From positions 96,382 to 160,381 of the forward strand of contig JANYJZ010000030.1 of NCBI GenBank assembly GCA_025358305.1: DNA of 64,000 nucleotides. The letters are read 5' to 3'. Under the pieces are notes generated by a model, which had not been told where the DNA came from, did not search any database, and was given only the letters and a program-made list of their open reading frames with translations. Shown one piece after another: positions 10,799-55,589 of this stretch. This DNA is from Ignavibacteriota bacterium (GTDB lineage: Bacteria > Bacteroidota > Ignavibacteria > UBA10030 > SZUA-254). The position numbers and the translations under genes are program-made. Numbering within the stretch: position 1 is the stretch's first letter; each line of letters begins with the position of its first letter.

Positions 10799-10841
10799 AG
10801 GTTCGTTCGGGGGGGCGGGGCGCTTGATGTCGGAAAGTGGC

Positions 10842-10859
10842 CGTACGGAGCTCCGTACG
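10842..10859. terminator. Perfect 18-nt palindrome between the convergent RND and CDF genes (candidate bidirectional terminator hairpin)
   Basis: cgtacggag/ctccgtacg. There is no T-tract on either side. Confidence 0.35.
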
Positions 10860-10881
10860 CGACGATGGTGCGTGCGGTAGG

Positions 10882-23684: not shown

Positions 23685-23975
23685 GAGTGTTGACAGGAGC
23701 CCCGGCGTTTGCGCCGGGTACGAATGATGCGGAGGAGTGAGTCGAAAAATATACCAAAGGAGGGTGCAAGAAGCAACACTCGGTCCAAATCCCTGGAGCC
23801 TTGAATCATTTCCCCGCTTTTCGTATGTTAGGTCGGAGCGCGGATCGTACGACATCGCTTCCCCTCCCGGTATCCTCAAATGCTGGTACGATCGCCGGCG
23901 ATCGCGGCGTGTCTGTTATAGAGAGTCGTTGCGTCGGATGGTCTCTCCCACAGAATCAAGGTTTTCTCGCATTCC

Positions 23976-31772: not shown

Positions 31773-31787
31773 CTCGCTAAGGAATGA

Positions 31788-35027: not shown

Positions 35028-35079
35028 ATGAGTTCCCGTAGAGGATGGTCAGATGCGGCCGCGCGCGGAGCGCGCGGCA

Positions 35080-35691: not shown

Positions 35692-35723
35692 GATATTCCT
35701 GAAAATGAGTGGGTACACATGGT

Positions 35724-36681
35724 TCATCGCCCCCGCAGCCGGTCGAGGAGCACGGCGGAGAGGATCACCACGCCCAGGAGGATCATCTGGACGTAGGAGC
35801 TGACGTTCATGAGGTTGAGGCCGTTGCGCAAGACGCCGATGAGCATCGCCCCGATGAAGGTCCCGACGACCGACCCTCTGCCACCGAAAAGGCTCGTCCC
35901 GCCCACGACGACGGCGGCGATGACGTCAAGCTCGTACATCTGTCCGGCGTTCGGCTGGCCGGAGTTCATCCTCGACGCCAGGAGGATCCCGCTGAACGAG
36001 GCGAGCATGCCGCAGAGCATGTAGACCTTGAGCACGACGCGGTCCGTCGGAACGCCGGAGAGCCGCGCCGCTTCAGGGTTTCCGCCGACGGCGTAGACGT
36101 GCCGTCCGAAGCGCGTGCGGTCGAGGACGACGTACGCGGCAACATAAACGATGACCATGCAGATCGTCGGGACGGGGACGCCGAAGAGCCGTCCGCTGCC
36201 CAGAAGGCTGAACGCATCGGGGAGGCCCCAGACCGGCCTGCCATCCGTGAACATGTAGGCCGCCCCGCGCCAGATCGTCATGAGCGCCAAGGTCACGATG
36301 AACGGCGTGATCTTGAGCTTCGTGACGAATGTCCCCGCGAGCGCGCCTGAGAACGCGCCGATGGCGAGTCCCGACAGGACGACACAGAGGAGCGCGACGG
36401 GATACGGCGCGTTCATCTTTAAGACCGTCGTCACGATAACGCCCGTGAACGCCACGATCGCACCGACGGACAGGTCGATGCCCGCAGTGAGGATGACGAA
36501 GGTCATCCCCACCGCGATGATGGCGATGATGGAGGTCTGGAGCGATATGTTGAGGATGTTCTCCGCGGTGAAGAAGTAGGGCGAGAGAAGGGCGAAGAGG
36601 CCGATCTCCGCCGCCAGTACGATGGCGATGCCGAACTCGCCGACGAGCGCCTTGAAGGTCTTCGAGGAGCGGGTCACGGAC

Positions 36682-36689
<8 letters not shown>
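35724..36689 (-). CDS. Sugar ABC transporter permease (RbsC/XylH-like, BPD_transp_2 family)
   Basis: Transmembrane-rich, with an IGGTSLFGGRGSV motif. The start is assigned to the GTG that overlaps the ATPase gene stop. The ATG at 36797 would overlap the ATPase gene by 115 nt. Confidence 0.7.
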
Positions 36690-38190
<1,501 letters not shown>

Positions 38191-39102
38191 CTAGTGCGCC
38201 GCGTTCAGGGATGCCGCGTCGACGATGCCGACCTCGACGGGGATCTTCTTCGGGAGTTGGGCTCCCGAGAAATATTCGCTGATCTTCATGATCGTCGTGG
38301 CGCCGATCTTCTTCGGATACTGCACGACGTCGGCCTTGAGGGCCGTGCCTTTTGTGATCGCGTCCACCGCCGGCGGCGTCGCGTCGTAGCCGACGATGCT
38401 GATCCCTGTTCGGTTGAACTGCTTGACCGCATCGAGCGCGCCGAGCGCGGAATCGTCGTTGATGCCGAACATGCCGTTGAGGTCGGGATGCGCCTGGAGG
38501 ACGTCGGCGGCGGCCTGCATCGCCATATCCCTCCTCCCTTCGCCGTTCACGTCCGCGACGATCTCCATGCCGGGATACTTCGCGACGGCGTCCTTGAACC
38601 CTTGGACGCGGTCGAGGACGGAGGTGATGGTGGGCTGGCCGATGATGGCGACCTTCCCCTTCCCGCCGAGCGCCTTGGCGAGGTACTCGCCTGCAAGGGT
38701 GCCGCCGGCGACGTTGTCGGAGGCGACGTGGCAGACGATCTCGCCCTCAAGCGAGGCGATGTCGGCCGTGAAGACCGGGATCTTCGCGTCATTTGCTTTC
38801 TTCACGGAGGGGCCGATCCCCCGGGAGTCGACCGGGCAGACGACGATCGCGTCCACCTTTCGCGCGATGAAGTCCTCGATCTGCGCGCTCTGCTTGCCGA
38901 GATCGAACTCCCCGGCGGTGACGATGAGCTCGTACCCGTGCTTCGCCGCTTCCGTCTGGAGCCCTTCTTCCAGGTCCTTGAAGAAGACGTGGGCCCGGGT
39001 CAGGAGCGAGACGCCGATGACCTTGGAGGCTTTCGCCTCTTTCTTGCCGCAGGAAATCGAGACGAGGGCGATCGCGAGGATGACGCAGAGGATTTTTTTC
39101 AT
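38191..39102 (-). CDS. Sugar ABC transporter substrate-binding lipoprotein (periplasmic binding protein type I, ribose/galactose class)
   Basis: Lipobox ISCG. The Peripla_BP_4 pattern (VIGVSLL..., AIVVCPVDS, KIPVFTAD) is present. Confidence 0.8.
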   Translation of the reverse strand: MKKILCVILAIALVSISCGKKEAKASKVIGVSLLTRAHVFFKDLEEGLQTEAAKHGYELIVTAGEFDLGKQSAQIEDFIARKVDAIVVCPVDSRGIGPSVKKANDAKIPVFTADIASLEGEIVCHVASDNVAGGTLAGEYLAKALGGKGKVAIIGQPTITSVLDRVQGFKDAVAKYPGMEIVADVNGEGRRDMAMQAAADVLQAHPDLNGMFGINDDSALGALDAVKQFNRTGISIVGYDATPPAVDAITKGTALKADVVQYPKKIGATTIMKISEYFSGAQLPKKIPVEVGIVDAASLNAAH

Positions 39103-39109
39103 ACAGCTC

Positions 39110-40066
39110 CTATGATGATGTGGTTCTTCTGTCGAGGATGACCGCCAGCACGATCACCAGGCCGATGGCGACCTGCTGCCAGTACGCGGAAACATCTAAT
39201 AATACTAAACCGTTGCGTAAAATGCCCATGAGGAGCGATCCGATGATGACCCCGAGGATCGTCCCGCGGCCACCGGTGAGGCTCACCCCGCCGATGACCG
39301 CCGCCGCGACCACGTCGAGCTCGTACCCGAGCCCCGCGGTCGACTGTCCAACCCCGAACCGCGAGGTGAAGAGGACCCCGGCGATCCCCGCGGCGAGCCC
39401 GCAGAGGGCATAGACGGCGATCTTGACGCGGTGGACGCTCACGCCGCTCAAGAGGGCCGCCTCCTCGTTGCCGCCGATGGCGTAGGTGTACCGCCCCCAC
39501 GGCGTCGACCGGAGGAGGAACCCGACGGTGGCCGCAAGAAGCGCCATGGCGAGGATCGGAATGGGCAGGCCGAGGATCTCGCCCTGGCCGATGAGGAGGA
39601 ATCCTGGTGGAAGGCTTCGGATCGTCTCGCCGCCGGTGATCGCGAACGCCAGGCCGCGGGCGATGCTCATCATGCCGAGCGTGACGATGAACGGCGGAAG
39701 CTTTGCGCGCGTGATGACAAGGCCGTTCAGGATGCCGCCGAACAGTCCGACGACGACGCCGGCGAGGACGGCGGCTGGGGTCCCGACGTTCGCATTGAGG
39801 AGGACCGCCGTGACGACACCGGAGAGCCCGAGGACGGAACCAACGGAGAGATCGATGCCGCCGGTGATGATGACGACGGCCTGTCCCACTCCCATGATGG
39901 CGATGAAGGAGAGGGCCCGGATGACCTGGGAAAGATTGGACCAGTTGAGGAAGGTGGACTCGAACCCGCTGCTGCCGCCGAAGGAGGAGGTGAGGATGGT
40001 CAGGAGCAGCACTTCGAGCAGGAGCGCGAGCCAGATGCCGAAGCGCATGGTCTTCAAAACCGGCAT
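39110..40066 (-). CDS. Second sugar ABC transporter permease (BPD_transp_2 family)
   Basis: Ten transmembrane helices and an IGGVSLTGGRGTI motif. It is the first gene of the permease-SBP-ATPase-permease set. Confidence 0.8.
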   Translation of the reverse strand: MPVLKTMRFGIWLALLLEVLLLTILTSSFGGSSGFESTFLNWSNLSQVIRALSFIAIMGVGQAVVIITGGIDLSVGSVLGLSGVVTAVLLNANVGTPAAVLAGVVVGLFGGILNGLVITRAKLPPFIVTLGMMSIARGLAFAITGGETIRSLPPGFLLIGQGEILGLPIPILAMALLAATVGFLLRSTPWGRYTYAIGGNEEAALLSGVSVHRVKIAVYALCGLAAGIAGVLFTSRFGVGQSTAGLGYELDVVAAAVIGGVSLTGGRGTILGVIIGSLLMGILRNGLVLLDVSAYWQQVAIGLVIVLAVILDRRTTSS

Positions 40067-41338: not shown

Positions 41339-43237
41339 CTATGCCTTCCCTGTGCGCACGCCCTCCAGCGCGTGCCAGCGGGCGTAGAGTCCCTCCACGG
41401 AGCCCTTCGCCGCATCGAGTTCGGCAGTGAGTTTCGCGGTCTGGCCCCCATATACGTCGAAAAAATCGGGGCGCGCGAAGACCGCCTCGATGCGGATGAC
41501 CTCTTCCTCGGCGCGCATGATGTCGGCCTCGATGGTCTCGAGCTCCTTTGCCTCCTTCCAGCTGAGCTTCTTCTTCGGCCTGGCACCCGGGGCGTCGGGC
41601 GTCGCGTCGCGCGGGGCCGAAGCGGCGGCCTGCGCCGCCGCTTCGGCCCGGCGTGCGATCCGCTTTTCGAGATAGTAGTCGTAGTTCCCTTCGCTGAAGT
41701 GCACCACCCCGTCCCCCTCGAACGCGAGGATCCCGTTGCAGACCCGGTTGAGAAAGTAGCGGTCGTGGCTCACGGCGATGAGGCAGCCGTCGAACGCGAT
41801 GAGTGTCTCTTCGAGAACCCGCATCGTCGCGAGATCGAGGTCGTTCGTCGGTTCGTCGAGGATGAGCATGTTGCCCCCGTTCTTCAGGATCTTCGCGAGG
41901 AGGAGCCTGCTTCGCTCGCCGCCGGAGAGCTTCCCCACCTGCGTGTTCATCCGGTCATCGGCGAACAGGTATCGCCGGAGATATTTCCATATCGTCATCT
42001 TCTCCTCCCCGAACATGATCCACTCCCGTCCTTCGCCGATCTCCTGGATGACGGTGTTCCCGTCGTCGAGGGCGATGCGCGACTGGTCGATGTAGTTCAC
42101 GGCCGTGAGGTCCCCCTTTTCCACGAGCCCGTCGCTCTGCTCAAGTTCCCCGAGGATGATCCGGAGCAGCGAGGTCTTGCCGAGTCCGTTGCGGCCGATG
42201 ATGCCGAGCTTTCTCCCCTTCGTGAAGAGGAAGCTGAGGTCTTCGATGAGTCGCTTGCCGCCGAGGGTCAGACCGAGGTGCTTGAAGTTGAGGATCTTCG
42301 AGCCGAGCTGGGATGCGGGCGGGATGAGGAAATCCACCTCTTCGTCGGCGCGGTAGCCGGCCTTGTCGGCGAGCTCGAAATAGCGGCTCATCCTGCTCTT
42401 GGACTTCGTTCTCCGGGCCTCCGGGCTCCGGCGCACCCATTCGAGTTCGCGGCGGAGGAAGCGGTTCCGCTTGTGCTCCTCCGTCTCCCGCTCCACCTCA
42501 CGCTCGGCCTTGTCGAGGAGAAAATCGGTGTAGGAGCCCGCATGGGAATAGCACTGGCCGTCCGCGAGCTCGATGATCCGGTTCGCGAGCGCGTCGAGGA
42601 AGTAGCGGTCGTGCGTGACGAAGAGGCACGCGCCGGAGTAGCCCGCGAGGAACTGTTCCATCCATTCGATCGATTCGGTGTCGAGGTGGTTGGTCGGTTC
42701 ATCGAGGATGAGAAGGTCGGGCCGGGAGATGATCGATCGGCAGAGCGCGACCCGGCGCTGCTCGCCGCCGGAGAGCGTGCGGATGTCGCGGCTCCCATCG
42801 GGCACGTTGAGGGAATGCATCGCTGATTCGATCCTGTTGTCGAGGTTCCAACCTTCGCGCTGACGGATCTGTTCCTCTAACAGGTGCCTGCGCTCTGAGG
42901 TGTACGGAAGGGATTCGTACTCCTTCAGAAGGTCGGCGACGTCATGGGCCCCTTCGGCGATGTTCTCGTAGACCGTCAGCGCTGGATCGAGAAGGAATGC
43001 CTGGGGAAGGTACCCGGTGACGAGGTCACGCTTCCGGGAGACGGAGCCGCCGTCGGGTTCGAGGATGCCCGCGACGATCTGGATGAGCGTCGATTTGCCC
43101 GACCCGTTGTTGCCGATGAGGCCGATCCGGTCTGCCTGGTGGATGCTGACCGTCGCTTCCCTGAGAACGATCTGCTCGCCGAAGCGGATGGAGACATCCT
43201 GCGCCGCAATGAGGACGGGACTGATGGCTTTTGACAT
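41339..43237 (-). CDS. ABC-F family ATPase (Uup/EttA/YbiT-like; two NBDs, no transmembrane domain)
   Basis: Start at MSKAISPVL (43237). Two Walker A motifs (GNNGSGKST, GRNGLGKTS) and two LSGGE signatures. An inter-domain linker and a C-terminal coiled coil. The upstream extension of the ORF in the track is Arg/Ser junk. Confidence 0.85.
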   Translation of the reverse strand: MSKAISPVLIAAQDVSIRFGEQIVLREATVSIHQADRIGLIGNNGSGKSTLIQIVAGILEPDGGSVSRKRDLVTGYLPQAFLLDPALTVYENIAEGAHDVADLLKEYESLPYTSERRHLLEEQIRQREGWNLDNRIESAMHSLNVPDGSRDIRTLSGGEQRRVALCRSIISRPDLLILDEPTNHLDTESIEWMEQFLAGYSGACLFVTHDRYFLDALANRIIELADGQCYSHAGSYTDFLLDKAEREVERETEEHKRNRFLRRELEWVRRSPEARRTKSKSRMSRYFELADKAGYRADEEVDFLIPPASQLGSKILNFKHLGLTLGGKRLIEDLSFLFTKGRKLGIIGRNGLGKTSLLRIILGELEQSDGLVEKGDLTAVNYIDQSRIALDDGNTVIQEIGEGREWIMFGEEKMTIWKYLRRYLFADDRMNTQVGKLSGGERSRLLLAKILKNGGNMLILDEPTNDLDLATMRVLEETLIAFDGCLIAVSHDRYFLNRVCNGILAFEGDGVVHFSEGNYDYYLEKRIARRAEAAAQAAASAPRDATPDAPGARPKKKLSWKEAKELETIEADIMRAEEEVIRIEAVFARPDFFDVYGGQTAKLTAELDAAKGSVEGLYARWHALEGVRTGKA

Positions 43238-43328
43238 TCGTGTGTGCTCTTTGCGTGAGGGTAACAGCGTGAGGACTTGCTCAAACATAGGGAGAAAATC
43301 CGCTCCAAACAAATGAAGCCGGGGCGCA

Positions 43329-45194
43329 TCACCGCAGGAGGAGCATCTTCCCCGTCCTGTGCACCGTTCCGGCTTCGAGCCGGCAGTAGTAGACGCCGGA
43401 GGATCGGTCGTCGGCATGCCATGGGATCCGGTACTCGCCCGGCTGCAGGCGCTCCTCCACGAGCGTCGCGACGCGCCTGCCGAGGAGGTCGTAGACCTGG
43501 AGCCGCACGGACGCCGGGGCGGCGAGCGTGAAAGAGATGACGGTCGTGCTGTTGAAGGGGTTCGGGTAGTTCTGCCGCAGCTGGAACTCCGCCGGCACTC
43601 CCGCACCGGCGTAGGTGACGCCCGTCGGCGAACCGATGAGCGGAAGCTCGATGTACGACGCGCGGTCCGCATCCATGCGGACGGAGACCCCCGTGTTGGC
43701 GAACATTGGTACGACGAATGGGTAGGATCCGAGGTCGATGCGGTTCGTGACGTCGATGTTCGTGAGCTCGACCCGGATCCGGCTGCCGGCCGTGAACCTA
43801 TGCGCGTGGGGGATCCCCTCCGCGAGCACCGAATCGGGGGCGCCGGGGAGCCAGTGTCGTCCCGTGTAATTGATTCTGTTCAAGAAGTACTTGACGCCGA
43901 GCGAATCCACTTCGTAGATCTGCGCGTGGATCGGGAACTTGTCGGTCAAGGGCCGAAGGTAGAGCTTCATCCGCGGCGTCCCGATCCAGGTAAGGTCCGT
44001 AGGAAGGGGCGGTGACTGGAAGACGAGCGAACGGTGCGGGAGCCTTGAATCGAAGAACGAACCGCGGAACCCCTCGATGAAACCGGAATCGAACGTATAG
44101 GTGGAGTCGGTGTAGAGGTTCTCCAGATAGAGCGAGTCGAGGCTCACCGCGGGCGGAGAATATCCGAGCGTGGAATCTGCCCCAAGATAGAATCGGAAGG
44201 GCGCAACACCGACTGGCGGCCAGGAGTTCACTCCGGAGCGCGTCCAGGTGAAATACCCGAGCGAATCCATGGGAAGGCTGCTCGCGGCATACGTGTAGAG
44301 GGGCTCGTCGGTGATCCCATTGTCGGCCCCCTGGAGAAAATGCCCGAGCCATCGCGTCACCTGGTCGTATTGATAGACGCGCTCGGATTCCACGTGGTCC
44401 GAAAAATGGCCGCGGGTTCCGACGTAGACCTTCTTCGGTCCCGCGTACCGGTTGAAGGCTTCGATGCCGTCGTTCGCGGCAAAATAATGGTCCTGCCACT
44501 TGAGGAACCGGAGCGTCGGGACCGATGCGCTGTTGAGGAGCGCGGTATCGACATCCCGGTACGCCGTGAACGTCGACCGAAACGCGTCGTACGCGTCGTC
44601 CCGCAGGAGACTCCAAAGCGTGTCGCGCACCGGGGCATAATGCACGGTAGCAGACTGAAGGAGGAGAAGCACCGTCCGGCGGACCGAGCCGTTCATGAGC
44701 ATGTCGCTCGCCCAGTGCGGGACGATGACGTCCGATGATACCGCCTGGACCGGCAGCCTGTCCGCCGCGGCCCAGAGCCCGTGCAGCCCTCCCTGCGAAC
44801 CGCCGACGATCCCCACCCGCGCGGTGTCGACGCCGGGAAGGCCGCGGAGGAATGCAAGCACCTCGACGAGGTCGGCACGTTCCTGGAGCGACATGATCGT
44901 CGAGTTCCCTGAGGAATTGCCGTGGCCGCGCACCGAATAGCACAGGGTGAGATAACCCAGGCCGGCGTAGATGCTGCCGTTGGCCGTATCCGCATCCTTG
45001 TCGAGCCCGTACCCGTGAACAAAGAGGATTGCCGGAGCGCCGGACGGAGGAAGGATCGCCGGCGTGTAATACGTCGCGTCGAGGCTGTCCCCCGTGGCAA
45101 GCGGAATGAAGAGGTCGTGACGCACCTGCGCCGACAGGGTCGCTGCAAGAAGGAACGCCGCGAGGATGCCGGACAAGCGGATGAAGACGGTCAC
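43329..45194 (-). CDS. S15/CocE-NonD family alpha/beta hydrolase (X-Pro dipeptidyl-peptidase-like) with a C-terminal T9SS sorting domain
   Basis: Signal peptide. The nucleophile-elbow motif is GGSQGG. The C-terminal 80 aa match Por_Secre_tail (NYPNPFNSTTVISF...VYDLLGRRVATLV...SGVYYCRLEAG...KMLLLR). Confidence 0.7.
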   Translation of the reverse strand: MTVFIRLSGILAAFLLAATLSAQVRHDLFIPLATGDSLDATYYTPAILPPSGAPAILFVHGYGLDKDADTANGSIYAGLGYLTLCYSVRGHGNSSGNSTIMSLQERADLVEVLAFLRGLPGVDTARVGIVGGSQGGLHGLWAAADRLPVQAVSSDVIVPHWASDMLMNGSVRRTVLLLLQSATVHYAPVRDTLWSLLRDDAYDAFRSTFTAYRDVDTALLNSASVPTLRFLKWQDHYFAANDGIEAFNRYAGPKKVYVGTRGHFSDHVESERVYQYDQVTRWLGHFLQGADNGITDEPLYTYAASSLPMDSLGYFTWTRSGVNSWPPVGVAPFRFYLGADSTLGYSPPAVSLDSLYLENLYTDSTYTFDSGFIEGFRGSFFDSRLPHRSLVFQSPPLPTDLTWIGTPRMKLYLRPLTDKFPIHAQIYEVDSLGVKYFLNRINYTGRHWLPGAPDSVLAEGIPHAHRFTAGSRIRVELTNIDVTNRIDLGSYPFVVPMFANTGVSVRMDADRASYIELPLIGSPTGVTYAGAGVPAEFQLRQNYPNPFNSTTVISFTLAAPASVRLQVYDLLGRRVATLVEERLQPGEYRIPWHADDRSSGVYYCRLEAGTVHRTGKMLLLR

Positions 45195-47980
45195 CGTAGG
45201 AGCAGGAGCTTCTTTGTTTCCACGAACGCGCCGGAGTGCAGACGGTAGAAATACACGCCCGTTGGAAGGGTCCCGGCGTTCCAGTTCACGCGGTACCGAC
45301 CCGGCGGCATCGGCTCATTGACGAGCACAGCCACCTCGCGTCCCAGGATATCGTAGACGGTGAGCCGTACCGCTCCACCCTCGACGATCGAGAACTCGAT
45401 CCGTGTCTCGGGATTGAAGGGGTTCGGGTAATTCTGCGAGAGCTGATACGTAATCGGAAGATCCTGGACCGGCGGCGCCACCCCCGTCACCGTGCCTGAT
45501 GCCGTCGTCGTCAGGACCGACCCTCCGCTCCCGACCGCGAACCCGTGCGTACTGTCCGTGAAGGTGAGCCCGAAGAGATCGTGCGTATCGGCGCCGTATT
45601 GGGAGTACCAGTGAGTCCCCGCATCAGTGGAGTACCAGATCGCACCGCCGTCGCCGGCCCCATAGATGTGAGACCCGTCGCGTGCGAAGAGCCGGCGGAT
45701 CGTCGCACTCCCCGGTGTGGCGACCGATTGCCAAGGCGAGGCGGTGGAGGCGCGATAAAAGACCTTCCCGCTGTCACCGGCCGCCCAGAGCGCGGAGGAA
45801 TCACTGGGAGCAACTGCGTTGATCGATCCGGTGAGCTCCACGCCCGTTGTGCTCCAACTCAGCCCGCCGTCCGGCGACGAATAGATCGACAATCCACGTG
45901 AAGAGCCCACGCTCAGGATATCATAGCCGCGCGCGGTGAGGCATTGGAACGATTGCGTAGAATCGGCCACGATCGTCGACCAAGTGCCGCCGCCGTCGGT
46001 TGTGCGGAGGATATCGCCGTCGCCGGCAAGATAGCCGACAACAGGACCCACAAAGGCGATCGCGCGAAACGTCGACGTCACACCCAGATCATGGCGAGTC
46101 CACGTCTCGCCGCTATCGGCGCTCTCATACACCGCGCCCGATTGCCCGACCGCCCAGAGCGACGCAGGGGAGAGGTGAAAGAGGCTCGTAAAGATTACAT
46201 TAAAGCCGACGGCCTTCTCCGCCCATGTGGTGCCGCCATCGGTCGTTTTCAGGATCGATCCGTGATCCCCGAGGATCCAGCCGTTCTGCGTTCCCGAGAA
46301 CGTAACGTCATACCATCGCTGCCAGTTGTTCAGGGGCATGCGGAACCACTTCTGCGTGTAGGTCGGCGAGAGTGCGAGCCCGAAATGCTTGCCCGCGCCG
46401 CATTCCTGCTCGGTGACGGAATCGATCGTCGCGATGTTCGCGATGGGGTTGATCACCGACGGCAGCGCCCGGCGCTCCGCGCCGTCGAAGACGAAGCTTC
46501 GCAAGAGCCGTTCATCCTGGACGCCGGTGCCGACCTCGGTCACGTTCGTCGAGACGTCCACATAGGACCACTGGAGGCGCGCGGTGAACGCCGCAGTCGA
46601 GGGGAATGGCACGACCTCCAGCCACCGCCGGATGTATTTTCCGTCCGCCGCGGCGAGCGACGGGGGCATGGAATCGGGGTGCGCCACGACGAGGACGCTG
46701 TCGAGGCCGAACATGCTCGTGAACCAGAGCGTTGCCAGCTGTCGGCCGTCATACGCCACAAAATGATACGGCACGCCGGTCTGCGTGACGGGAAGGGTCA
46801 CGCTGTTGTACTCTCCTGACGGGGGATGGATGAACGTCTTGAGAAGATAGTTTCTCCGCGCGGTGATGAAATACTTCAGGGCGTCGACATGATCATGAAA
46901 GTCCTGGGCCGTCCCCCATTTCCCGGGGTCGTTCTCCGCCGCGGCGGAGACATAGGCCGCGAGGCTGTCGATCCGCGGCAGCATCCTTGCTTCCGTGAAG
47001 ACCGTCTGCAGCACGGTGTCGACCCGGAGCCGGAGCTCCTCCATAAGGCCGGGCGCCGCCATGAACCGGTCCTTGAGTACGCTCGAAGGTCCAGAGAGCA
47101 CCGGGTACGTGTACGCGAATCGGTCGTTGAGAAGGGATGCCGGATACGGGATCGCGAGATCTCCCGACCGTCCGAACGAGATATCGTAATCCCACGGGAT
47201 GACGGTCCACTGCTGCGTGGCGCGCGAGGTGTCGCGGTAGATCGCATAGTTCTTGCTGTAGCTGTCTCCCATCATCATCACGATGTTCCCCGTGAACCAG
47301 TTGAGGATGCTCGGCATGTCGAAATACCGGTCGAGCGTGTCGGCGAACGAGGCGTCAGGAGCAGTGTTGATGGCATGGAGAAGGACACTCAGATCGGAGT
47401 AGTCGGTGCTGCTGCCGACATCTTTCGCATAGTAGAGCTTCAGGATGCTGTCCGGCTGCTCCGTCATGTCCGCATTGTCATAGGTGTCGTCCGCCTCGTA
47501 CACCGGCGCGACGATACGGCCCCGGCGCTGGAAGAAATATTTGTCAAACTTGTCGATGGCGAGGTAGAGCCCGTCGGGCTGGCCGTTCAGGGAGAAAAGC
47601 GCGTGCTCGGCGATCGGAGCCATGTCGTTCATGTCGGCGAAGAGCCCCCATGCGAGGCGTTCGCGAAGGAACGACTTGTCGGTGTACATGGAGTTGAAAT
47701 TAAGGTCCCGCTGGGCATGGTAGAGGTGAGCCGTGGGGACACGCACGCGGAACGATTTCTTCGAATAGTACCGCGTGGAATGGCCCTTGAACCTCACGAG
47801 GGAATTGTTCCAGAGGGAATCGTGCACCGTGAGCGATGCCGGCAGCAGGGAGTCGCTGAAGATGTCCCGAGTGTAGAGAAGCTGGTAGTCGGCCGGGGTC
47901 ATCGTGACCGAATACCGGGTGAGCTGTGCGTGTGCCGGGAGTGAAAGCAACAACAGCACGAACACGAACATGGTCTTCAT
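45191..47980 (-). CDS. CotH kinase-like domain protein fused to BNR/Ycf48-like repeats, with a C-terminal T9SS sorting domain
   Basis: Signal peptide. CotH-family motifs in the N-terminal roughly 450 aa (SKKSFRVRV, LNFNSMYTDKSFLRERLAWGLF). At least six BNR/Asp-box-like repeats (TTDGGTTW, SADSGETW, TTDGGGTW, SPDGGLSW, STDAGTHW). Por_Secre_tail at the C-terminus (NYPNPFNPETRIEF...VYDILGREVAVLV...GVYFYRLHSGAF...KKLLLLR). Confidence 0.6.
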   Translation of the reverse strand: MKTMFVFVLLLLSLPAHAQLTRYSVTMTPADYQLLYTRDIFSDSLLPASLTVHDSLWNNSLVRFKGHSTRYYSKKSFRVRVPTAHLYHAQRDLNFNSMYTDKSFLRERLAWGLFADMNDMAPIAEHALFSLNGQPDGLYLAIDKFDKYFFQRRGRIVAPVYEADDTYDNADMTEQPDSILKLYYAKDVGSSTDYSDLSVLLHAINTAPDASFADTLDRYFDMPSILNWFTGNIVMMMGDSYSKNYAIYRDTSRATQQWTVIPWDYDISFGRSGDLAIPYPASLLNDRFAYTYPVLSGPSSVLKDRFMAAPGLMEELRLRVDTVLQTVFTEARMLPRIDSLAAYVSAAAENDPGKWGTAQDFHDHVDALKYFITARRNYLLKTFIHPPSGEYNSVTLPVTQTGVPYHFVAYDGRQLATLWFTSMFGLDSVLVVAHPDSMPPSLAAADGKYIRRWLEVVPFPSTAAFTARLQWSYVDVSTNVTEVGTGVQDERLLRSFVFDGAERRALPSVINPIANIATIDSVTEQECGAGKHFGLALSPTYTQKWFRMPLNNWQRWYDVTFSGTQNGWILGDHGSILKTTDGGTTWAEKAVGFNVIFTSLFHLSPASLWAVGQSGAVYESADSGETWTRHDLGVTSTFRAIAFVGPVVGYLAGDGDILRTTDGGGTWSTIVADSTQSFQCLTARGYDILSVGSSRGLSIYSSPDGGLSWSTTGVELTGSINAVAPSDSSALWAAGDSGKVFYRASTASPWQSVATPGSATIRRLFARDGSHIYGAGDGGAIWYSTDAGTHWYSQYGADTHDLFGLTFTDSTHGFAVGSGGSVLTTTASGTVTGVAPPVQDLPITYQLSQNYPNPFNPETRIEFSIVEGGAVRLTVYDILGREVAVLVNEPMPPGRYRVNWNAGTLPTGVYFYRLHSGAFVETKKLLLLR

Positions 47981-48130
47981 ACCAACAATCCTCGTTTAAT
48001 AGCAGATCGGTCAGCGCCAAACGTTCGAATCGGTCGATCCCGACCGATCCCACGTTGCACGTCAACACACAATCTACGATATCCCACGAAATTGTGGTGT
48101 GACCGGCATCAGGACACCCGAAAAGGGGCG

Positions 48131-49060
48131 TTATTTCTTCACTGCGCTGTTTTCCACGGGAAAGAGGCTCTTGCCATCGCGTTTCGGGAACGGGAAGCCG
48201 AAGATACCTGCGATCGTCGGAGCGATGTCGATCTGCATATGGCGTTCCGCCACGACCGCCCCTTGGACGAACCCGGGACCCATGCCGAGGAGCATGATGT
48301 GGCGGCACCCCTCGCACGAGTCTCCGTGGTTCTGAAATCCGCCATGGGCCTCATCGTGCCGTCCATGATCGTTCGTCACGAACATCGTCGTTCGCTCGCG
48401 GTAGACGCTGTCCGATTCGATCTTGTTCCAGAGTCGGTAGACGAGCGAATCCGCCCCCCGGATCGCGCTGAGATATGCGTCCCAGTTCTTCGCGTGGCCG
48501 TTCACGTCCACGTCGGGAAAATTGATGATGAGAAGGCGCGGGTGCTCCGTATCCATGACCTTCACGATCTGCCTCCAGGTGGCCGTGTCGCTCGTGGTCG
48601 CCCCTGCGACGAACCGCGCGCCGTAGGCCGATCCGAACGCCGTGTCGACGCTGTGCGTCAGCATCTCGAGCTTCGTCTTCCCGGAGATCACGAAGCACGT
48701 ACTTTCCGGCTGTCCCGTGTATTTCCGGTAGAATTCAAATACCGTCGGGGTCGCGGGGCGGACGCTGCCGTCGTTCGGCATGTCCTGCCAGACGCCTGTC
48801 AGGACGGCGCTGTGTCCGGCGCAGGTCTTCGTGATCCCATCGTTGCGGAAGTTCGTGTAGACCGTCCCTTTCGGCCGGAGGTCGTTCCAGATCCGGGGCA
48901 TGTTCGTCGCGCCCGCACCGAAGGATTCATCGTACCGGGCGCCGTCGATCATGACGATCACGACGTTTTGTGCGAGCCCTGCGGTGGTGACAAGCACAGA
49001 AAAGATCGCGAGGAAAACAAGCGCGCGCGCGACGACGGGTCGGATACGTTTCATGTGCAT
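48131..49060 (-). CDS. Alkaline-phosphatase-superfamily metalloenzyme (phosphodiesterase/sulfatase-like), secreted
   Basis: Signal peptide. VVIVMIDGARYDE is a metal-binding Asp motif, and TNDHGRHDEAHGGFQNHG sits in the second metal site region. The start is set to M34. Confidence 0.55.
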   Translation of the reverse strand: MHMKRIRPVVARALVFLAIFSVLVTTAGLAQNVVIVMIDGARYDESFGAGATNMPRIWNDLRPKGTVYTNFRNDGITKTCAGHSAVLTGVWQDMPNDGSVRPATPTVFEFYRKYTGQPESTCFVISGKTKLEMLTHSVDTAFGSAYGARFVAGATTSDTATWRQIVKVMDTEHPRLLIINFPDVDVNGHAKNWDAYLSAIRGADSLVYRLWNKIESDSVYRERTTMFVTNDHGRHDEAHGGFQNHGDSCEGCRHIMLLGMGPGFVQGAVVAERHMQIDIAPTIAGIFGFPFPKRDGKSLFPVENSAVKK

Positions 49061-49085: not shown

Positions 49086-50861
49086 TTATTTCCAGGCCGA
49101 CCGCAGCCAGTCCTGGTAGATGGTCTTCTGGATCTCACTCGGTGATGTACTTCGGACAACGGTACATGCGGGTACCGGCTGGTGGGCCACCGCGACGGTG
49201 AATTCCTGCAAACGGTCGTTCCGGAAGACCGTCAGGATCACCTTCCCGCCGGGCTTGAGTTCCCCGGTCCTGTCGGTGATATCAGCGCTCCTCACCCGAA
49301 AACCGTTGAGTGCCACGACCTCGTCGCCGAGATCGAGTCCCGCCTCATACGCGGGCGAACCGGCAACGACCCTCGTGACCTTCGTCCGGCCGTCCGCATC
49401 GGAGGTCATGAGACCGATCCACGATTTGGCGACGGAGTCGCGCTGCATCACCTTGAGGCCGGCATACGCGAGGACAGACTCCCACGGAAGCGCCTGCGTG
49501 CCGTCGACAAAATCCGAAAAATACTTGCCGAAGTCCTCCCCCGTGACGTCACGGAGCGTGCGGAGAACATCTGATTCGGTATATCCGACACCCAGGGGAA
49601 ACTGTTTGTAGAGGGTCCGGAGGACGTCGTCGAGCGAATGCGCGTTCGCGGTCCTGTGGCGGATCTCGAGATCGAGGAGCATCGAGACGGTCGACCCTTT
49701 GTCGTAGAAATCAGATTCTGTGTTGAACGCCTGCTGCGTCCCGCGGTTGAACTTGATCCACGCATCAAAGCTCGATCCCGACAGCGGCTGCACCGCGTTC
49801 CCCGGCCGCAGTCGGTCCGCCTGCAGCTCATTCTGGAGCATCTCGAGGAACACCTCCGGCGTCCGGAGTCCGGCGCGGACGAGGATGAGTTCGCCGTAAT
49901 ACGACGTCGTCCCCTCGGCGATCCAAAGTTCGGTCGTATAATTCTCTTTCGTATAATCATACGGCGTCATGCCGCGTGGACGGAGCCGCTTGACGTTCCA
50001 GGTGTGGAAATACTCGTGTGACACCACCGAGAGAAATCCCCGGTACGAATCAGCGTTCTTGAAGACGAAGGGCCGAGTGCCGATGACGGCTGAATTCAGG
50101 TGTTCCGTTGCGCCCCCCGAACTCGGCGTACAGTGGATGAGGAAGACGTACCGTCGATACGGCATGTCGCCCCACTGCGACACCGTCGTCCGGATGATCT
50201 TCGTCATGTCCCGGACCAGTGTATCCGCGTCCCAATTGCCCTCGCCGAAGATGCTCAGGACGTGCGGAATTCCGTCGACGTCGAACGAGAAATCCTTCTG
50301 CGTGCCGATCTCCAGGGGGCAGTCGACGAACGTATCGTACCCCGGCGCCGTGAAGGTCGTGCCGATCCCCTCGAGCCCGGTCGTGACGTGCCAGCCCGCA
50401 TAGGGCTTCACCTCGAGGGTGACCGGTAGGGAGCGGTACCGTTCCGCGTAGAGGAACAGGGCGGCCCCGTCGACGAATGCGTGCGCGTCGTTCAATCCGC
50501 GCGTCCGCAGGTTGAACTCGTTTGCGAACACGGTGTAGCGGACCTTCACCTCTTGCGCCGCGCCGCGCGCGACACGCCAGAGCGATTTCTCCACTTTCTT
50601 CCAGGGAAGCGCGTTCCCCTTTCCGTCGACGGCGGAAAAGTCCACCACTCCCCCGGCGAGATCGAGAACGACGTAGCGCCCGGGGCGCCAGGCCGGCAGA
50701 ATGAGATCGAGATCGGCCGGTTCCGCCGGAAGCCGGTCATAGGTCAGCTCGACCTCAAAGAGGTGCGTGGCAGGCTTGGACATGCCGAGCGTATAGCGGA
50801 TGGTCGGTTGTTGCGCGAGGGTCATTGTCGTGGCCGTAAGTAGAATCAGGAGTAGGTTCAT
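49086..50861 (-). CDS. M61 family glycyl aminopeptidase with a C-terminal PDZ domain
   Basis: Signal peptide. The zinc motif HEYFHTWN (HExxH) appears in an M61 context, followed by a PDZ-like segment (GLDLGDEVVALNGFRV). Confidence 0.75.
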   Translation of the reverse strand: MNLLLILLTATTMTLAQQPTIRYTLGMSKPATHLFEVELTYDRLPAEPADLDLILPAWRPGRYVVLDLAGGVVDFSAVDGKGNALPWKKVEKSLWRVARGAAQEVKVRYTVFANEFNLRTRGLNDAHAFVDGAALFLYAERYRSLPVTLEVKPYAGWHVTTGLEGIGTTFTAPGYDTFVDCPLEIGTQKDFSFDVDGIPHVLSIFGEGNWDADTLVRDMTKIIRTTVSQWGDMPYRRYVFLIHCTPSSGGATEHLNSAVIGTRPFVFKNADSYRGFLSVVSHEYFHTWNVKRLRPRGMTPYDYTKENYTTELWIAEGTTSYYGELILVRAGLRTPEVFLEMLQNELQADRLRPGNAVQPLSGSSFDAWIKFNRGTQQAFNTESDFYDKGSTVSMLLDLEIRHRTANAHSLDDVLRTLYKQFPLGVGYTESDVLRTLRDVTGEDFGKYFSDFVDGTQALPWESVLAYAGLKVMQRDSVAKSWIGLMTSDADGRTKVTRVVAGSPAYEAGLDLGDEVVALNGFRVRSADITDRTGELKPGGKVILTVFRNDRLQEFTVAVAHQPVPACTVVRSTSPSEIQKTIYQDWLRSAWK

Positions 50862-51698: not shown

Positions 51699-53405
51699 CT
51701 ACCGTGCCTTTCGTTTAAGGATGAGGAGCGTCATGTCGTCGAATTGGGGGTGTTTCCCGACGAACTTCCGTACGGTCGAAAGGATCTTTTCCATAAGTTC
51801 GCGCGCGGAGAATTCCCGGTATTTCAGGATGGTCTCCGCGATCCGCTCTTCGCCGAAGAACTCCTCCTTCTTGTTCATCGCATCCGCGACGCCGTCGGAA
51901 TAGATGACGAGCAGGTCCCCCGGCCGGAACGCGATCTCCGACTCTTCGAACGAGAACTCCTCGATCGCCCCGAGGACGATCCCTCCCGTCGACAGACGCT
52001 GCACAGGGTTCTTTTCCGAGTGAAAATACGGGTTATCGTGGCCCGCGTTGGAGAAGACGAGGCGGTGCGTCCGCGTATCGAGAATGGCGTAGAAGAGCGT
52101 CACGAACTTGTCGATGCTCGTGCTCCTGTGAAGGAGCTTGTTGGAGCGCGAGAGGCACTCCTTCACGCTCACGCCGGGATACGTCTGGCCGCGGAGCGTC
52201 GCCTGGAGGTTTGCCATGAGGAGTGACGCCGGAAGACCCTTGCCGGAGACGTCGCCGAGGCAGACCGCCCACTGATGTTCGTCGACCGGGATGTAGTCGA
52301 AGTAATCTCCGCCGACCACCTGCGCCGGGATGGACGTTCCCGCGACGTCATAGCCGGCGATCTCCGGATGGACCTTCGGGAGGAGATCCGCCTGGATGCG
52401 CGCGGCGAGCCGCACCTCTTCGCGCATTCGGTGGTATGCCTTCTCTGATTCGTAGAGCCGAGCGTTCTCGATGGCGATCGAGGCATGTATCGAGAGGGCA
52501 TTGATGAAGTGTTCGTCGTCTCGGGTGAAGTCGCCCTTTTGCTTGTTGAGGAGCTGCAGGACGCCGATGATCTTGTCATCCTTGTTCTTCATCGGCATGC
52601 AGAGGATCGTCCGCGTGTGGTACCCGGTCTTCTTGTCGAACTCCGGGTTGAATCGCGAGTCAAGATACGCGTCGGAGATGTTGAGCGTGTCGCCCGACGC
52701 CCCGACGTATCCTGCGATACCCTTCCCGAGCGGGAGGCGGATCGTCACGAGTTCCGATCCCCGCAAAACCTTCGACCAAAGCTCCTTCTTCTTTTCGTCG
52801 AGGAGGTAGAGCGTCCCTCGGTCGCCTTCGACGATCTTGAGTGCCGTGTCGAGGATGAGGGAAAGGAGCTTGTCGAGGTCAAGAGTGGAGTTCACGACCT
52901 TCGCCGCCTCGTTCAGCTGCTCCATATGGCGAAGCTCGACGATGGCCTTGCGCGACGAGCGTTCGAGCTCGTTGATGAAATAGGTATTGCTCGACCGGAG
53001 GCGGAGGCTCATCATCTGCATGAGCCGGATGGTGAACGGATGGCTAGCCTGGAGGAGGGCGTCAAAATCGTCCTTGTGGAGCGTAAAGACGACGCAGTCT
53101 TCCATCGCGACGACGCGCGCCGAGCGGGGACGCCCGTCGACCATCTCGAGCTCGCCGAAGAAATCCCCTTCGTGGAGAAGGGCGAGCATGTTCTCTTCGC
53201 CCGACCTCGTCCTCTTGACGATCTTGACGCGGCCGGCAGTGATGAGGTACAGCTCCATTCCCTCGCTCTCGTCCTCCAGAATGACGTCGTTCTCATGGAA
53301 CTTGCGTTCCTTGAGCTTCGGCTTCAGGGTCTGGAAGGCGTCGTCGCTGAGGTCCTCAAAGAGGATGTTCAGCCGGAGCCTGTCGAGGGAGGAAATGGGT
53401 TTCAT
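51699..53405 (-). CDS. Cyclic-nucleotide-binding domain + GAF + PP2C/SpoIIE-type protein phosphatase
   Basis: The N-terminal CAP-like cNMP domain reads FGELEMVDGRPRSARVVA. A GAF domain follows. The C-terminal PPM/SpoIIE motifs are GDYFD, GDVSGKG, FSNAGH and VIYSDG. Confidence 0.8.
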   Translation of the reverse strand: MKPISSLDRLRLNILFEDLSDDAFQTLKPKLKERKFHENDVILEDESEGMELYLITAGRVKIVKRTRSGEENMLALLHEGDFFGELEMVDGRPRSARVVAMEDCVVFTLHKDDFDALLQASHPFTIRLMQMMSLRLRSSNTYFINELERSSRKAIVELRHMEQLNEAAKVVNSTLDLDKLLSLILDTALKIVEGDRGTLYLLDEKKKELWSKVLRGSELVTIRLPLGKGIAGYVGASGDTLNISDAYLDSRFNPEFDKKTGYHTRTILCMPMKNKDDKIIGVLQLLNKQKGDFTRDDEHFINALSIHASIAIENARLYESEKAYHRMREEVRLAARIQADLLPKVHPEIAGYDVAGTSIPAQVVGGDYFDYIPVDEHQWAVCLGDVSGKGLPASLLMANLQATLRGQTYPGVSVKECLSRSNKLLHRSTSIDKFVTLFYAILDTRTHRLVFSNAGHDNPYFHSEKNPVQRLSTGGIVLGAIEEFSFEESEIAFRPGDLLVIYSDGVADAMNKKEEFFGEERIAETILKYREFSARELMEKILSTVRKFVGKHPQFDDMTLLILKRKAR

Positions 53406-53428
53406 GGCAGGCCTTCGCCCTCACTGCG

Positions 53429-54187
53429 TCAGCCGAAGTTCCTGCCCGTGACGACCTGGTACCCCGTGACAGCCATGTCGTCGCTCGTCGTGGAATGCGC
53501 TTTTGTCTCTTTTTCGAGCTGCATCTTCCACTGATATACTCCTGAAAACGTGTGGGCAACCTTTTCGGTGAGCGATTTGAATGAGCCGCTCGCCTCATAC
53601 TTCTCGGCGTCGTGCAGGCTGTTCCAGATCGTGAGGGAGATGGGGTGATCTGGGTCGTTCGCGTTCTCGGTGAGGGCGGCGTAGAGGCAGCCTTCCGCAG
53701 CGCGCAGGACCGGGATGACCTCCTCGTTGAAAACGCGCTTGAACTCATCGATCTTACCGGGGCGTATCTGGGGAGAGACGATGCGGACGAAGAGCGGCCC
53801 GACGCGGCGCTTCGGCATGATGGCCGAGACCCTTTTTTCGGCGATGCTGTACGCTTGGACGACGGGTTCCACCGGAACCGGTTCGTACTCCAGGACGTTG
53901 TCCTTCGAGAGATGAAGGCGCCACTCGGAGGTGCCGGCAAGGTAGGGCTCGGCGCCCTTGAGGAGCTCGGCGAAGACGCCGCTCTTCTCATAGGCCTCCG
54001 CGTGCTGCGGCGTCTCCCAGAGTGTGAGAGAGATGTACTCATTGTCGTCGCGTACGCTCTTCGTCAGGCCGACGTAGAGGCATCCGGGCGTCTCTTGCAG
54101 CCTCGGAATGACGTTGCGCTCGTAGTTCTCCTGAAGCTCGGCAACCCTTCCAGGGTTGGCCGTCACTTGGAGCATTCGCATATGCAT
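53429..54187 (-). CDS. Tandem ABM (antibiotic biosynthesis monooxygenase-like) domain protein
   Basis: Two repeats of about 100 aa with the ABM pattern (...PGRVAELQENYERNVIPRLQETPGCLYVGL...LTLWETPQHAEAYEKSGVFAEL, and ...PGKIDEFKRVFNEEVIPVLRAAEGCLYAAL...LTIWNSLHDAEKYEASGSFKSL). A 35-aa C-terminal tail follows. Confidence 0.6.
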   Translation of the reverse strand: MHMRMLQVTANPGRVAELQENYERNVIPRLQETPGCLYVGLTKSVRDDNEYISLTLWETPQHAEAYEKSGVFAELLKGAEPYLAGTSEWRLHLSKDNVLEYEPVPVEPVVQAYSIAEKRVSAIMPKRRVGPLFVRIVSPQIRPGKIDEFKRVFNEEVIPVLRAAEGCLYAALTENANDPDHPISLTIWNSLHDAEKYEASGSFKSLTEKVAHTFSGVYQWKMQLEKETKAHSTTSDDMAVTGYQVVTGRNFG

Positions 54188-54302
54188 GGCCGTATCTCCT
54201 TATGAAAGACAGAGCCGAACAGAGCCGTCGTTCCGAGGCTCTGCGGCAGGATACTCTTCTCTGAACACTGTTTTCCGTTTCTCCGACCGCACGCGGGAAC
54301 GC

Positions 54303-55589
54303 TTACGCGTCCGGTTTACGCTTCACCACGATAATGGTCATGTCGTCCGACTGCGGCGTGCGCCCGGCGAACGACTTCGCGGCACTGATGATCGTATCGA
54401 TGAGGTCGATCGGCGACAGATGGTGGTTCTTCACGAGAACCTCCGTGAGCCTCTCCTCCCCGTACAGCTCCTTCTCCGCGTTCATCGCCTCGGGAATGCC
54501 GTCGCTGTAGACGACGACGGTGTCTCCCGGCAGAAGCTGGACCGCGGCCTCTTCGAACGGGAAGTGCTCCATGATCGAAACGACGATGCCTCCGGTCGGC
54601 AGGCGGACCGGCGCCTTGCCTTCGGAGAGAAGGAACGGATGGTCGTGGCCTGCGTTGCAGTACACGAGCTCGTGCTTCTTCGGGTCAAGGATGCTGTAGA
54701 ACAGCGTGACAAACTTCTCCGGACTCGTGCTCTCGAAGAGGAGCTTGTTCGACCGCACGATGACGTCCCGGGCCGTCGCGTTCACGAGCGTCTGGCCCCG
54801 GAGCGTCGCCTGGAGATTCGCCATGAGGAGGGATGCCGGAAGGCCCTTGCCGGAGACGTCGCCGAGGCTCAGGGCGATGCGGTCCCCGTCCATCGGGATG
54901 AAATCGAAGTAGTCGCCGCCCACCATCTGCGCCGGGATGCTTCTCCCGGCGATCTCGTAACCGGCGATGTCGGGAAACTTCTTCGGGAGGAGCTCCAGCT
55001 GGATGTTGGAGGCGAGGCGGACCTCCTCCTGCATGCTGATGAGCGATTTTTCGGACTCGTAGAGACGGGCGTTCTCGAGGATCTGACCCGATTGCGCGGC
55101 GATGATGGAGAGCAGGCGCTTGTCGTCCTCGCTGAATCCCGCGCCGTCCTTTTTGTTGAACACGGCGAGGATGCCGATGAGCCTGTTCTTCACGAGGAGC
55201 GGGACGCAGAGAAGCGACCGAATGTCGCCGTCGCCTTTGACGCCCGTGAATCGCGGGTCGTTCGAGAGGTCGTTCGTCAGGAGCGCCTTCTTATTGATCA
55301 TCATCCAGCCGAGGATATTCTGGTTGATGTGGAACTGCTGGTGGTTCGTCGTCGAGTTTTGGGCGCGCACAAGGGTCTTCATCTCCGTCGGCGCCTCCTC
55401 GTCGACGAGCGTGATCATGCCCTGCTGGCCCTGCGCGGTGCGCACGGACCGCTTCACGACATGATCGATGACCGTATCGAGGTTCATCGTCGAGCTGATG
55501 ACGCGGGCGAGCTCGTTCAGGATCGAGAGTTCGTCGACGGCCTTCCGAAGCCGGACGTTCTCCTCCTGGAGTTGTACTAATGGGTCCAT
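54303..55589 (-). CDS. GAF + PP2C/SpoIIE-type protein phosphatase (paralogue of 51699-53405, without the cNMP domain)
   Basis: GAF domain followed by GDYFD, GDVSGKG, CNAGH and VVYSDG. It is about 55% identical by eye to the C-terminal two-thirds of the upstream paralogue. Confidence 0.8.
   Translation of the reverse strand: MDPLVQLQEENVRLRKAVDELSILNELARVISSTMNLDTVIDHVVKRSVRTAQGQQGMITLVDEEAPTEMKTLVRAQNSTTNHQQFHINQNILGWMMINKKALLTNDLSNDPRFTGVKGDGDIRSLLCVPLLVKNRLIGILAVFNKKDGAGFSEDDKRLLSIIAAQSGQILENARLYESEKSLISMQEEVRLASNIQLELLPKKFPDIAGYEIAGRSIPAQMVGGDYFDFIPMDGDRIALSLGDVSGKGLPASLLMANLQATLRGQTLVNATARDVIVRSNKLLFESTSPEKFVTLFYSILDPKKHELVYCNAGHDHPFLLSEGKAPVRLPTGGIVVSIMEHFPFEEAAVQLLPGDTVVVYSDGIPEAMNAEKELYGEERLTEVLVKNHHLSPIDLIDTIISAAKSFAGRTPQSDDMTIIVVKRKPDA

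Follow-up and report, generated by a model that had tools for sequence, protein, structure and literature searches.

The DNA analysed here is a stretch of 64,000 nucleotides, referred to below as the window, from an Ignavibacteriota bacterium (GenBank assembly GCA_025358305.1, contig JANYJZ010000030.1), and its main subject is a gene for a CotH-type kinase joined to a beta-propeller. The open reading frame (ORF) lies on the minus strand at positions 45191–47980, in exact agreement with the ORF listing, and its stop codon occupies 45191–45193. It encodes 929 amino acids in an unbroken frame, with a codon-position GC pattern of the coding type (GC content at third positions, GC3, of 0.80). From its N-terminus onwards, the protein comprises a signal peptide, a CotH atypical protein-kinase domain, a beta-sandwich, a seven-bladed propeller and a C-terminal sorting domain (CTD) of the type IX secretion system (T9SS). 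Its stop codon overlaps the start of a gene for an S15-type hydrolase, which bears a T9SS tail of its own. The fusion is real, is neither rare nor unannotated, and belongs to a family that has already been catalogued.

The kinase domain extends over residues ~20–385 (46826–47923, minus strand) and shows the atypical protein-kinase-like fold of the solved CotH structure. The Pfam family CotH (PF08757) matches residues 62–379 with E=6.3e-61 and 207.1 bits, against a gathering cutoff of 23.8, and the profile is covered from end to end (1–322 of 322). In the sequence alignment to the Bacillus cereus CotH 5jd9 (E=8.6e-34), D239, N244 and D264 fall on D224, N229 and D247. The catalytic-loop equivalent D239-x4-N244 (GDSYSKNY) is encoded at 47249–47266 and the metal-binding motif D264-Y-D266 (PWDYD), aligned with D247-Y-D249 of B. 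cereus, at 47183–47191, both on the minus strand. Across 64 relatives, down to 34% identity, K74, D239, D264 and D266 never vary, and N244 is present in 61. Because of this conservation, the core is predicted from its sequence to be active and not a pseudokinase. In Bacillus subtilis CotH, mutation of D228 or D251 inactivates the enzyme (PMC7821199). The 23 residues that separate D224 from D247 in B. cereus equal the spacing of D228 and D251, and the B. subtilis residues are mapped by this spacing, through the B. cereus alignment and the published numbers, not by direct alignment.

Both ends of the protein carry export signals. The signal peptide, residues 1–18 (MKTMFVFVLLLLSLPAHA, followed by Q19; 47927–47980, minus strand), is recognised by inspection from K2, a hydrophobic core and the putative cleavage site AHA|Q, and a signal-peptide-like N-terminus ending in A-Q is found in every full-length relative. 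At the other end, the T9SS type-A sorting domain (residues ~846–929; 45194–45445, minus strand) contains the motif QNYPNPFNP. It is matched by NCBIfam TIGR04183 up to residue 926, with 36.2 bits against a cutoff of 23, and by Por_Secre_tail (PF18962) over residues 851–925, with 30.1 bits against a cutoff of 27. Exported proteins of Bacteroidota have a habit of beginning with an N-terminal Gln, as pyroglutamate, and this habit fits the conservation of Q19 (47924–47926, minus strand), the first residue past the predicted cleavage site, where at least 90% of relatives have Gln.

The kinase domain is followed by a lineage-specific beta-sandwich, residues 386–540 (46361–46825, minus strand), which is all-beta and strongly conserved among relatives. 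Searched alone against Pfam, it has no match up to E<=10. Of 1.84 billion representative proteins, searched exhaustively, only 34 contain it, and nearly all of these place it right after a CotH domain, the few weak matches being other T9SS cargo. The propeller comes next, at residues ~541–835 (45476–46360, minus strand), and is supported by the profile PSII_BNR (PF14870; residues 542–823, E=1.1e-24, 87.6 bits against a cutoff of 27) as well as by structure. The predicted structure of residues 530–929, with a predicted local distance difference test score (pLDDT) of 90.3, consists of the propeller, a low-confidence flexible linker and the beta-sandwich CTD. The propeller has seven blades, and its best Foldseek matches are the Ycf48 structures 5oj3, 5ojr and 2xbg (E~1e-14, target-normalised template modelling (TM) scores of 0.72–0.79). 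Canonical Asp-boxes, taken as [ST]x[DN]xGxx[WFY], occur at residues 579, 620, 660, 702 and 784. The propeller reaches 85.5 bits with the Ycf48 equivalog NF010237, far under its cutoff of 326; therefore, it is a structural relative of Ycf48 and not an orthologue or a photosystem assembly factor. It also matches the F510_1955 glycosylhydrolase equivalog model, only far below the cutoff.

Much of this layout had been foreseen by the original prediction, which was made from the letters alone. It assigned the protein to the CotH family from the motifs SKKSFRVRV and LNFNSMYTDKSFLRERLAWGLF, both of which are found in the ORF, and the full-length PF08757 match bears the assignment out. The claimed signal peptide, Ycf48-like propeller and T9SS sorting domain hold as well, and the catalytic residues, whose conservation was left to be checked, are kept. 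Two details need amending. The CotH region was given as roughly 450 residues, whereas the fold stops near residue 385 and the distinct beta-sandwich behind it was overlooked; and the Asp-box repeats, though present, number five canonical copies on a seven-bladed fold, not at least six.

Modules made of a Ycf48-like propeller and a T9SS tail, ~30% identical to residues 535–929, are very common in metagenome-assembled genomes (MAGs) of Ignavibacteria (loci L001–L079), where they stand alone or sit in differently fused cargo. In this lineage, propeller and CTD together have the look of a mobile cassette. The window encodes a second large Asp-box protein at 59219–62431 (minus strand), of 1070 amino acids, with Sortilin-Vps10/BNR repeats and without a T9SS tail, which is weakly similar to the CotH propeller (25–30% identity).

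The partner of the CotH gene is a CocE/NonD-type alpha/beta hydrolase (Peptidase_S15 plus PepX_C) at 43329–45194 on the minus strand, identified with Pfam and NCBIfam profiles. The two genes overlap by the four nucleotides GTGA (in cgGTGAcc), the GTG start of the S15 gene lying on the TGA stop of the CotH gene, and a gap of 150 nucleotides lies 5' of the CotH start at 47980. The original prediction was right that the hydrolase is a second T9SS-tailed protein; it had the order of the overlap reversed, placing the CotH start on the stop of the hydrolase gene, and read the shared bases as ATGA. The profile scores are 56.9 bits for PF02129 (cutoff 23), 33 bits for PepX_C (cutoff 22.5) and 56.2 bits for TIGR00976, below its cutoff of 66.3. 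The G131xS133xG135 elbow, D235 and H263 do not vary among 11 orthologues, and the Ser-Asp-His triad is assigned by order and conservation only. Apart from CotH and S15, no ORF of the window has the QNYPNP motif, and the sorting domains of these two (that of S15 at 43332–43583, minus strand) are 53% identical over 84 residues. On the far side of the S15 gene, a mechanical ORF call lets an ABC-F ATPase (41339–43672, minus strand, 777 amino acids) run into its end; gene calls on identical contigs start the ABC-F gene at 43288 (649 amino acids), 40 nucleotides past the S15 stop.

The pairing is conserved beyond the window. About 35 family loci were gathered from exact-protein look-ups and from a metagenome scan whose seed was an alignment of CotH alone. 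The S15 gene directly follows CotH, with an overlap or at most ~60 nucleotides between them, in six loci of the full-length form (the window, L083, L084, L090, L093 and L094), and it lies likewise 3' of CotH in seven loci of a short form without propeller and tail (L088, L097, L098 and L103–L106). In a clade that has the propeller and lacks the tail (L087, L109 and L110), it is convergent and ~1.5 kb away. Every complete pair agrees in its tails: 5/5 S15 partners of tailed CotH proteins are tailed, and 5/5 adjacent partners of tail-less short forms are tail-less. The convergent S15 protein of L087 also has no tail. In two short-form loci, probably of one organism (L089:8631–9296 and L100:7619–8284), the partner is shortened to ~220 amino acids, which suggests that the gene is decaying in that lineage.

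A word-indexed search of 5.8 billion proteins yielded 129 relatives at E<=1e-10. The identical 929-residue protein is present on six independent metagenomic contigs, and the full architecture is common to ~75 clusters (at 90% identity) that are 44–76% identical to the ORF. Their sources are labelled as MAGs of Ignavibacteria, Ignavibacteriales, Bacteroidota or Chlorobiaceae, and they have been named automatically, by NCBI as 'CotH kinase family protein' and by JGI as 'spore coat protein CotH/photosystem II stability/assembly factor-like'. Variants fall into a group of ~540 amino acids with CotH and beta-sandwich only, a group of ~827 amino acids with the propeller and without the tail, and a few proteins in which CotH, beta-sandwich and tail are joined without a propeller. 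When the N-terminal 516 residues common to all forms are put into a neighbour-joining tree, the short forms group in a single clade with the main long clade as its sister, and propeller-bearing lineages branch outside both; this makes it probable that the propeller is the ancestral state and has been lost once. The architecture had been put forward as one not known to be characterised. This stands as far as no member of the family has been characterised and no literature on it was found, but its rarity was overstated, with at least 70 clusters from independent metagenomes already annotated automatically. The literature search returned no publication on CotH with type IX secretion or in Ignavibacteria; matches for CotH together with Ignavibacteria were rejected, being due to the author name Schoepp-Cothenet.

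Upstream of CotH lies a gene for an NPP-type enzyme of the alkaline-phosphatase superfamily (48131–49060, minus strand, 309 amino acids), with a signal peptide and without a T9SS tail. Its Pfam profiles are Phosphodiest at 40.5 bits (cutoff 23), Metalloenzyme at 38.8 and Sulfatase at 35.1. The NPP signature (D39-G-x-R, T79-x3-H83, D185-x3-H189, D231-H232) is retained: D39-G-x-R42, T79-x3-H83, H189 and D231-H232-G233 are invariant in 13 sequences that cover both CotH clades, this family and a sister clade described below, and D185 is kept in 12 of the 13. The gene is directly upstream of CotH in eight family loci (the window and seven others). Next to it is a gene for an M61 glycyl-aminopeptidase-like protein with a PDZ domain (49086–50861, minus strand; Pfam), which is also found upstream of CotH in L084, L089, L093, L094, L096, L098 and L099. 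The recurrent syntenic block additionally includes phosphatases with cyclic-nucleotide-binding (cNMP) and GAF-SpoIIE domains and a sugar-type ATP-binding cassette (ABC) transporter.

Relatives of the gene give clues to a phosphate donor. Basal family members (L087, at 9576–11032, L109, L110 and L113–L115) adjoin a VTC-type polyphosphate polymerase and DUF4956, and the same module is found beside secreted CotH in Gram-positive Pel loci (PMC7112168; bioRxiv 10.1101/2024.04.20.589940). A sister CotH clade (L117–L158, e.g. L118:402–6447), at 25–31% identity, comprises ~40 loci with GC contents of 0.40–0.72. The order of its cluster is a GH113-like TIM-barrel gene, a putative outer-membrane protein of ~276 amino acids, a secreted CotH and a membrane protein of ~445 amino acids, the size of a 12-TM (twelve-transmembrane) protein. 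The last of these exceeds the Pfam cutoff for the TLC ATP/ADP transporter in 7/7 proteins scanned (29–66 bits against 21), and its gene is directly 3' of CotH in at least 22 sister-clade loci. This TLC-like protein may be a route of ATP supply for a periplasmic or secreted kinase; the literature search found no mention of a link between CotH and a nucleotide transporter. A phosphodiesterase of the NPP type, a homologue of the one encoded upstream of CotH in the window (25% identity, E=5e-11), is recurrent in the sister clade as well and is divergently oriented in six loci.

The reading that we favour, and regard as probable while leaving real room for doubt, is that of a catalytically active CotH kinase, exported through Sec and the T9SS and targeted by its propeller to a substrate on the surface or outside the cell, where the S15 hydrolase made from the same transcript would work too. 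On this reading, the protein would pass the inner membrane by way of Sec and the outer membrane by way of the T9SS, and would act on the cell surface or in the surrounding medium. The CotH domain would transfer phosphoryl groups, with ATP as the most probable donor and Ser/Thr residues of proteins as the most probable acceptors, as in Bacillus CotH. The beta-sandwich would be a spacer or support domain, and the propeller would have no catalytic part and would bind the substrate or hold the enzyme on a surface structure. The CotH gene would be transcribed together with that of the exported S15-type hydrolase, with which the kinase may be coupled in function, and the presumably periplasmic NPP-type phosphodiesterase would be a frequent companion. 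Apart from the conserved kinase core, several results count in favour of this reading: the protein has a signal peptide and a type-A CTD, the S15 gene is its neighbour in six long-form and seven short-form loci with tails that agree, the S15 and NPP-like partners retain their catalytic signatures, relatives adjoin genes that could bring a phosphate donor across the membrane, and the closest structure to the propeller is Ycf48, which binds peptides. The domain identities, the folds, the conserved catalytic residues, the sorting signals and the gene pairing are thus established, while the protein substrate, ATP as donor, the surface location, the binding role of the propeller and the coupling with the hydrolase are inferences.

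Several points weigh against the active, exported protein kinase. No Ser-rich repeat protein like CotB or CotG is encoded near the CotH gene. The GH113-like partner of the sister clade, together with the association of CotH with Pel loci, keeps a glycan substrate possible. None of the T9SS machinery (SprA/Sov, PorK-N, PorU/V) is among the 44 ORFs of the window, and export of the CotH protein is therefore inferred from its signal; genes with T9SS tails abound in related MAGs. Of the long-form loci, about half have no S15 neighbour (L085, L086, L091, L107, L108, L111, L112 and L116). The co-variation of CotH and S15 tails (10/10), at first sight strong evidence, was downgraded, because the short forms make up a single clade in the tree and only ~3 independent lineages are represented; it is suggestive of co-localisation, not proof. 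Additionally, we know of no ATP source outside the cytoplasm, and VTC, DUF4956 and TLC-like genes are absent from the 64 kb, so that the idea of donor supply at this locus would be carried over from relatives only.

A wider proposal can be made tentatively, and we consider it possible but not the likelier case. The locus may represent one branch, displayed by the T9SS, of a bacterial system of extracytoplasmic phosphorylation that is widespread and undescribed and is made up of CotH, a means of donor delivery, an NPP-type enzyme for recycling or reversal, and a lineage-specific partner. Donor delivery may be provided by the TLC-like transporter in the sister clade, or by VTC and DUF4956 in basal members and Gram-positives, and the partner here may be the T9SS-exported S15 hydrolase. 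The targets of such a system may be proteins or glycans of the cell surface or matrix.

Among the alternatives to a protein kinase, a carbohydrate kinase survives best, although we hold it to be unlikely. The CotH domain would then phosphorylate an exopolysaccharide, a lipopolysaccharide or the glycan of a glycoprotein, in the manner of Fam20B, which acts on xylose, or POMK, and the propeller would bind the glycan. Asp-box propellers are common as glycan-binding or glycosidase scaffolds, and the type of propeller, along with its weak F510_1955 glycosylhydrolase match, agrees with such a role; yet the nearest propeller structure is a peptide binder. The GH113-like gene flanks CotH in ~40 sister-clade loci, and the Gram-positive CotH of Pel polysaccharide loci occurs with the GH-like DUF4832, while the close partners of the window gene are peptidase-like (S15, M61) and not glycan enzymes. 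The window does have GH38, melibiase-like and sugar ABC transporter genes 5–15 kb off, but the glycosidase genes among them are not conserved neighbours of CotH at other loci. Phosphorylation of protein Ser is the sole activity that has been demonstrated in the CotH family.

It is less probable still, and in our view quite unlikely, that the enzyme uses another donor or another chemistry outside the cell, either polyphosphate-dependent phosphorylation or a nucleotidyl transfer comparable to AMPylation by SelO. In favour of this, VTC and DUF4956 genes adjoin CotH in the basal members and in Gram-positive loci, an NPP-type nucleotide phosphodiesterase is a conserved neighbour, and other chemistries are documented for atypical kinase folds. 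Against this, the canonical D-x4-N ... D constellation for phosphotransfer is fully kept, the TLC ATP/ADP-transporter-like partner of the sister clade points to ATP, and the window is without VTC and DUF4956.

A non-catalytic surface adhesin or scaffold, in which the CotH fold would serve for binding only, as proposed for the Mucorales CotH3 invasin, appears very improbable. Mucorales CotH proteins are host-receptor ligands (PMC9973265), structural roles have been suggested for cellulosomal CotH, and the protein joins several beta-rich modules of a binding type with a surface-anchoring tag. However, the putative catalytic and nucleotide-site residues are conserved in all or, for N244, nearly all of the 64 sequences, including short forms without any other module, and conservation of this kind would not be expected of a purely structural role. 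Lastly, the notion that assembly or gene calling had merged a CotH gene with a separate propeller-CTD gene could draw on the CotH-only relatives of ~540 amino acids and on the abundance of propeller-CTD cargo genes in Ignavibacteria, but it is effectively refuted by the six independent contigs, the same unbroken architecture in at least 70 clusters from different studies, the continuous frame with coding-type GC3, and a tree in which propeller-bearing forms are probably ancestral.

Secreted CotH modules tethered to surface structures are already a known theme, and the favoured protein kinase can be placed among them. Bacillus CotH (B. cereus 5JD9/5JDA; B. subtilis) consists of one domain of ~360 amino acids without a signal peptide and works in the mother cell on the CotB and CotG proteins of the forming spore coat; the window protein, in contrast, has a signal peptide, beta-sandwich, propeller and T9SS tail, no CotB/CotG-like gene nearby, and a Gram-negative lineage that is not known to sporulate. 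By analogy, it would work most like the secreted, tethered CotH proteins of cellulosomes and streptococcal Pel loci. The dockerin-CotH proteins of cellulosomes (Clostridium thermocellum CseP/Cthe_0044, the LTD-Fn3-CotH protein Cthe_0239, and those of anaerobic fungi) are likewise secreted and tethered through a C-terminal targeting module. Their tether is a dockerin-cohesin pair of Gram-positives and fungi, with other partners and no propeller, whereas that of the window protein is a T9SS type-A CTD in a diderm. The CotH-FN3 proteins of streptococcal and clostridial Pel loci (SIR_1594) are also predicted to be secreted, keep their catalytic residues intact, have a beta-sandwich module behind the CotH domain, and share the adjoining VTC and DUF4956 with basal members of the window family. 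Unlike them, the window has neither Pel genes nor VTC and DUF4956, its protein bears a propeller and CTD instead of FN3, and the partners are S15 and NPP-like enzymes.

Other systems resemble the protein in part. Fam20C and Fam20B are eukaryotic Golgi enzymes that receive ATP via Golgi transporters, and their likeness to the window CotH is at the level of the fold only (11–14% identity). Ycf48/HCF136 has the same seven-bladed Asp-box propeller (PF14870, with the TM scores given above), but in the window protein this is one domain of a secreted multidomain protein with no photosynthetic context. The Mucorales CotH3 invasin is also of the CotH family and displayed on the surface behind a signal peptide; it differs as a eukaryotic host-receptor ligand of an unrelated lineage, with anchoring of the glycosylphosphatidylinositol (GPI) type and other accessory domains. 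What sets the window protein apart from the secreted CotH proteins of cellulosomes and Pel loci is the T9SS CTD as a tether, the lineage-specific beta-sandwich, the Ycf48-like propeller and the gene partners.

The spore coat of Bacillus is the only setting in which CotH kinases are understood, while most members are secreted proteins of non-sporulating organisms. For specialists, one more accessory module on a secreted CotH is no surprise, and the result in the window is mainly the correct annotation of a catalogued family. The more interesting lead is the recurrent genetic coupling of extracytoplasmic CotH to candidate suppliers of a phosphate donor, which lies mostly outside the window. If true, extracellular phosphorylation by CotH would give the Fam20C secretory kinases a counterpart in bacteria and would explain how a kinase outside the cytoplasm obtains its ATP. 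The family also offers a comparative handle, with an intact kinase core, a propeller and export tag that are gained or lost together, and an S15 export tag that tracks that of the kinase.

Some minor features of the region remain to be described. A scan of 41–52 kb for sigma-70 promoters and intrinsic terminators gave nothing above shuffled expectation, a weak hairpin alone being seen after the S15 stop. In the gap upstream of CotH, ~120 nucleotides from its start, lies a candidate CRP/FNR-type operator, CCTGATGCCGGTCACA (48098–48113, minus strand). The element CCTGA-N6-TCACA occurs once in the window, with 0.07 expected, and is found again in the corresponding intergenic place of L084, L093 and L098; judged by these letters, it may function as an operator of this type. 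Downstream of the CotH block, at 28953–40066 (minus strand), are a GH38 alpha-mannosidase, a melibiase/GH31-like protein of 939 amino acids and a sugar-type ABC transporter (ATPase, binding protein and permease); the GH38 and melibiase/GH31-like genes are not syntenic with CotH in other genomes, and the transporter is. At 51699–55589 and 21315–23879 (both minus strand) lie two GAF-SpoIIE phosphatases of the PP2C type, one of them cNMP-binding, and a Hanks-type Ser/Thr kinase with TPR repeats, and genes like these recur by the CotH block in L083, L084, L088 and L089.

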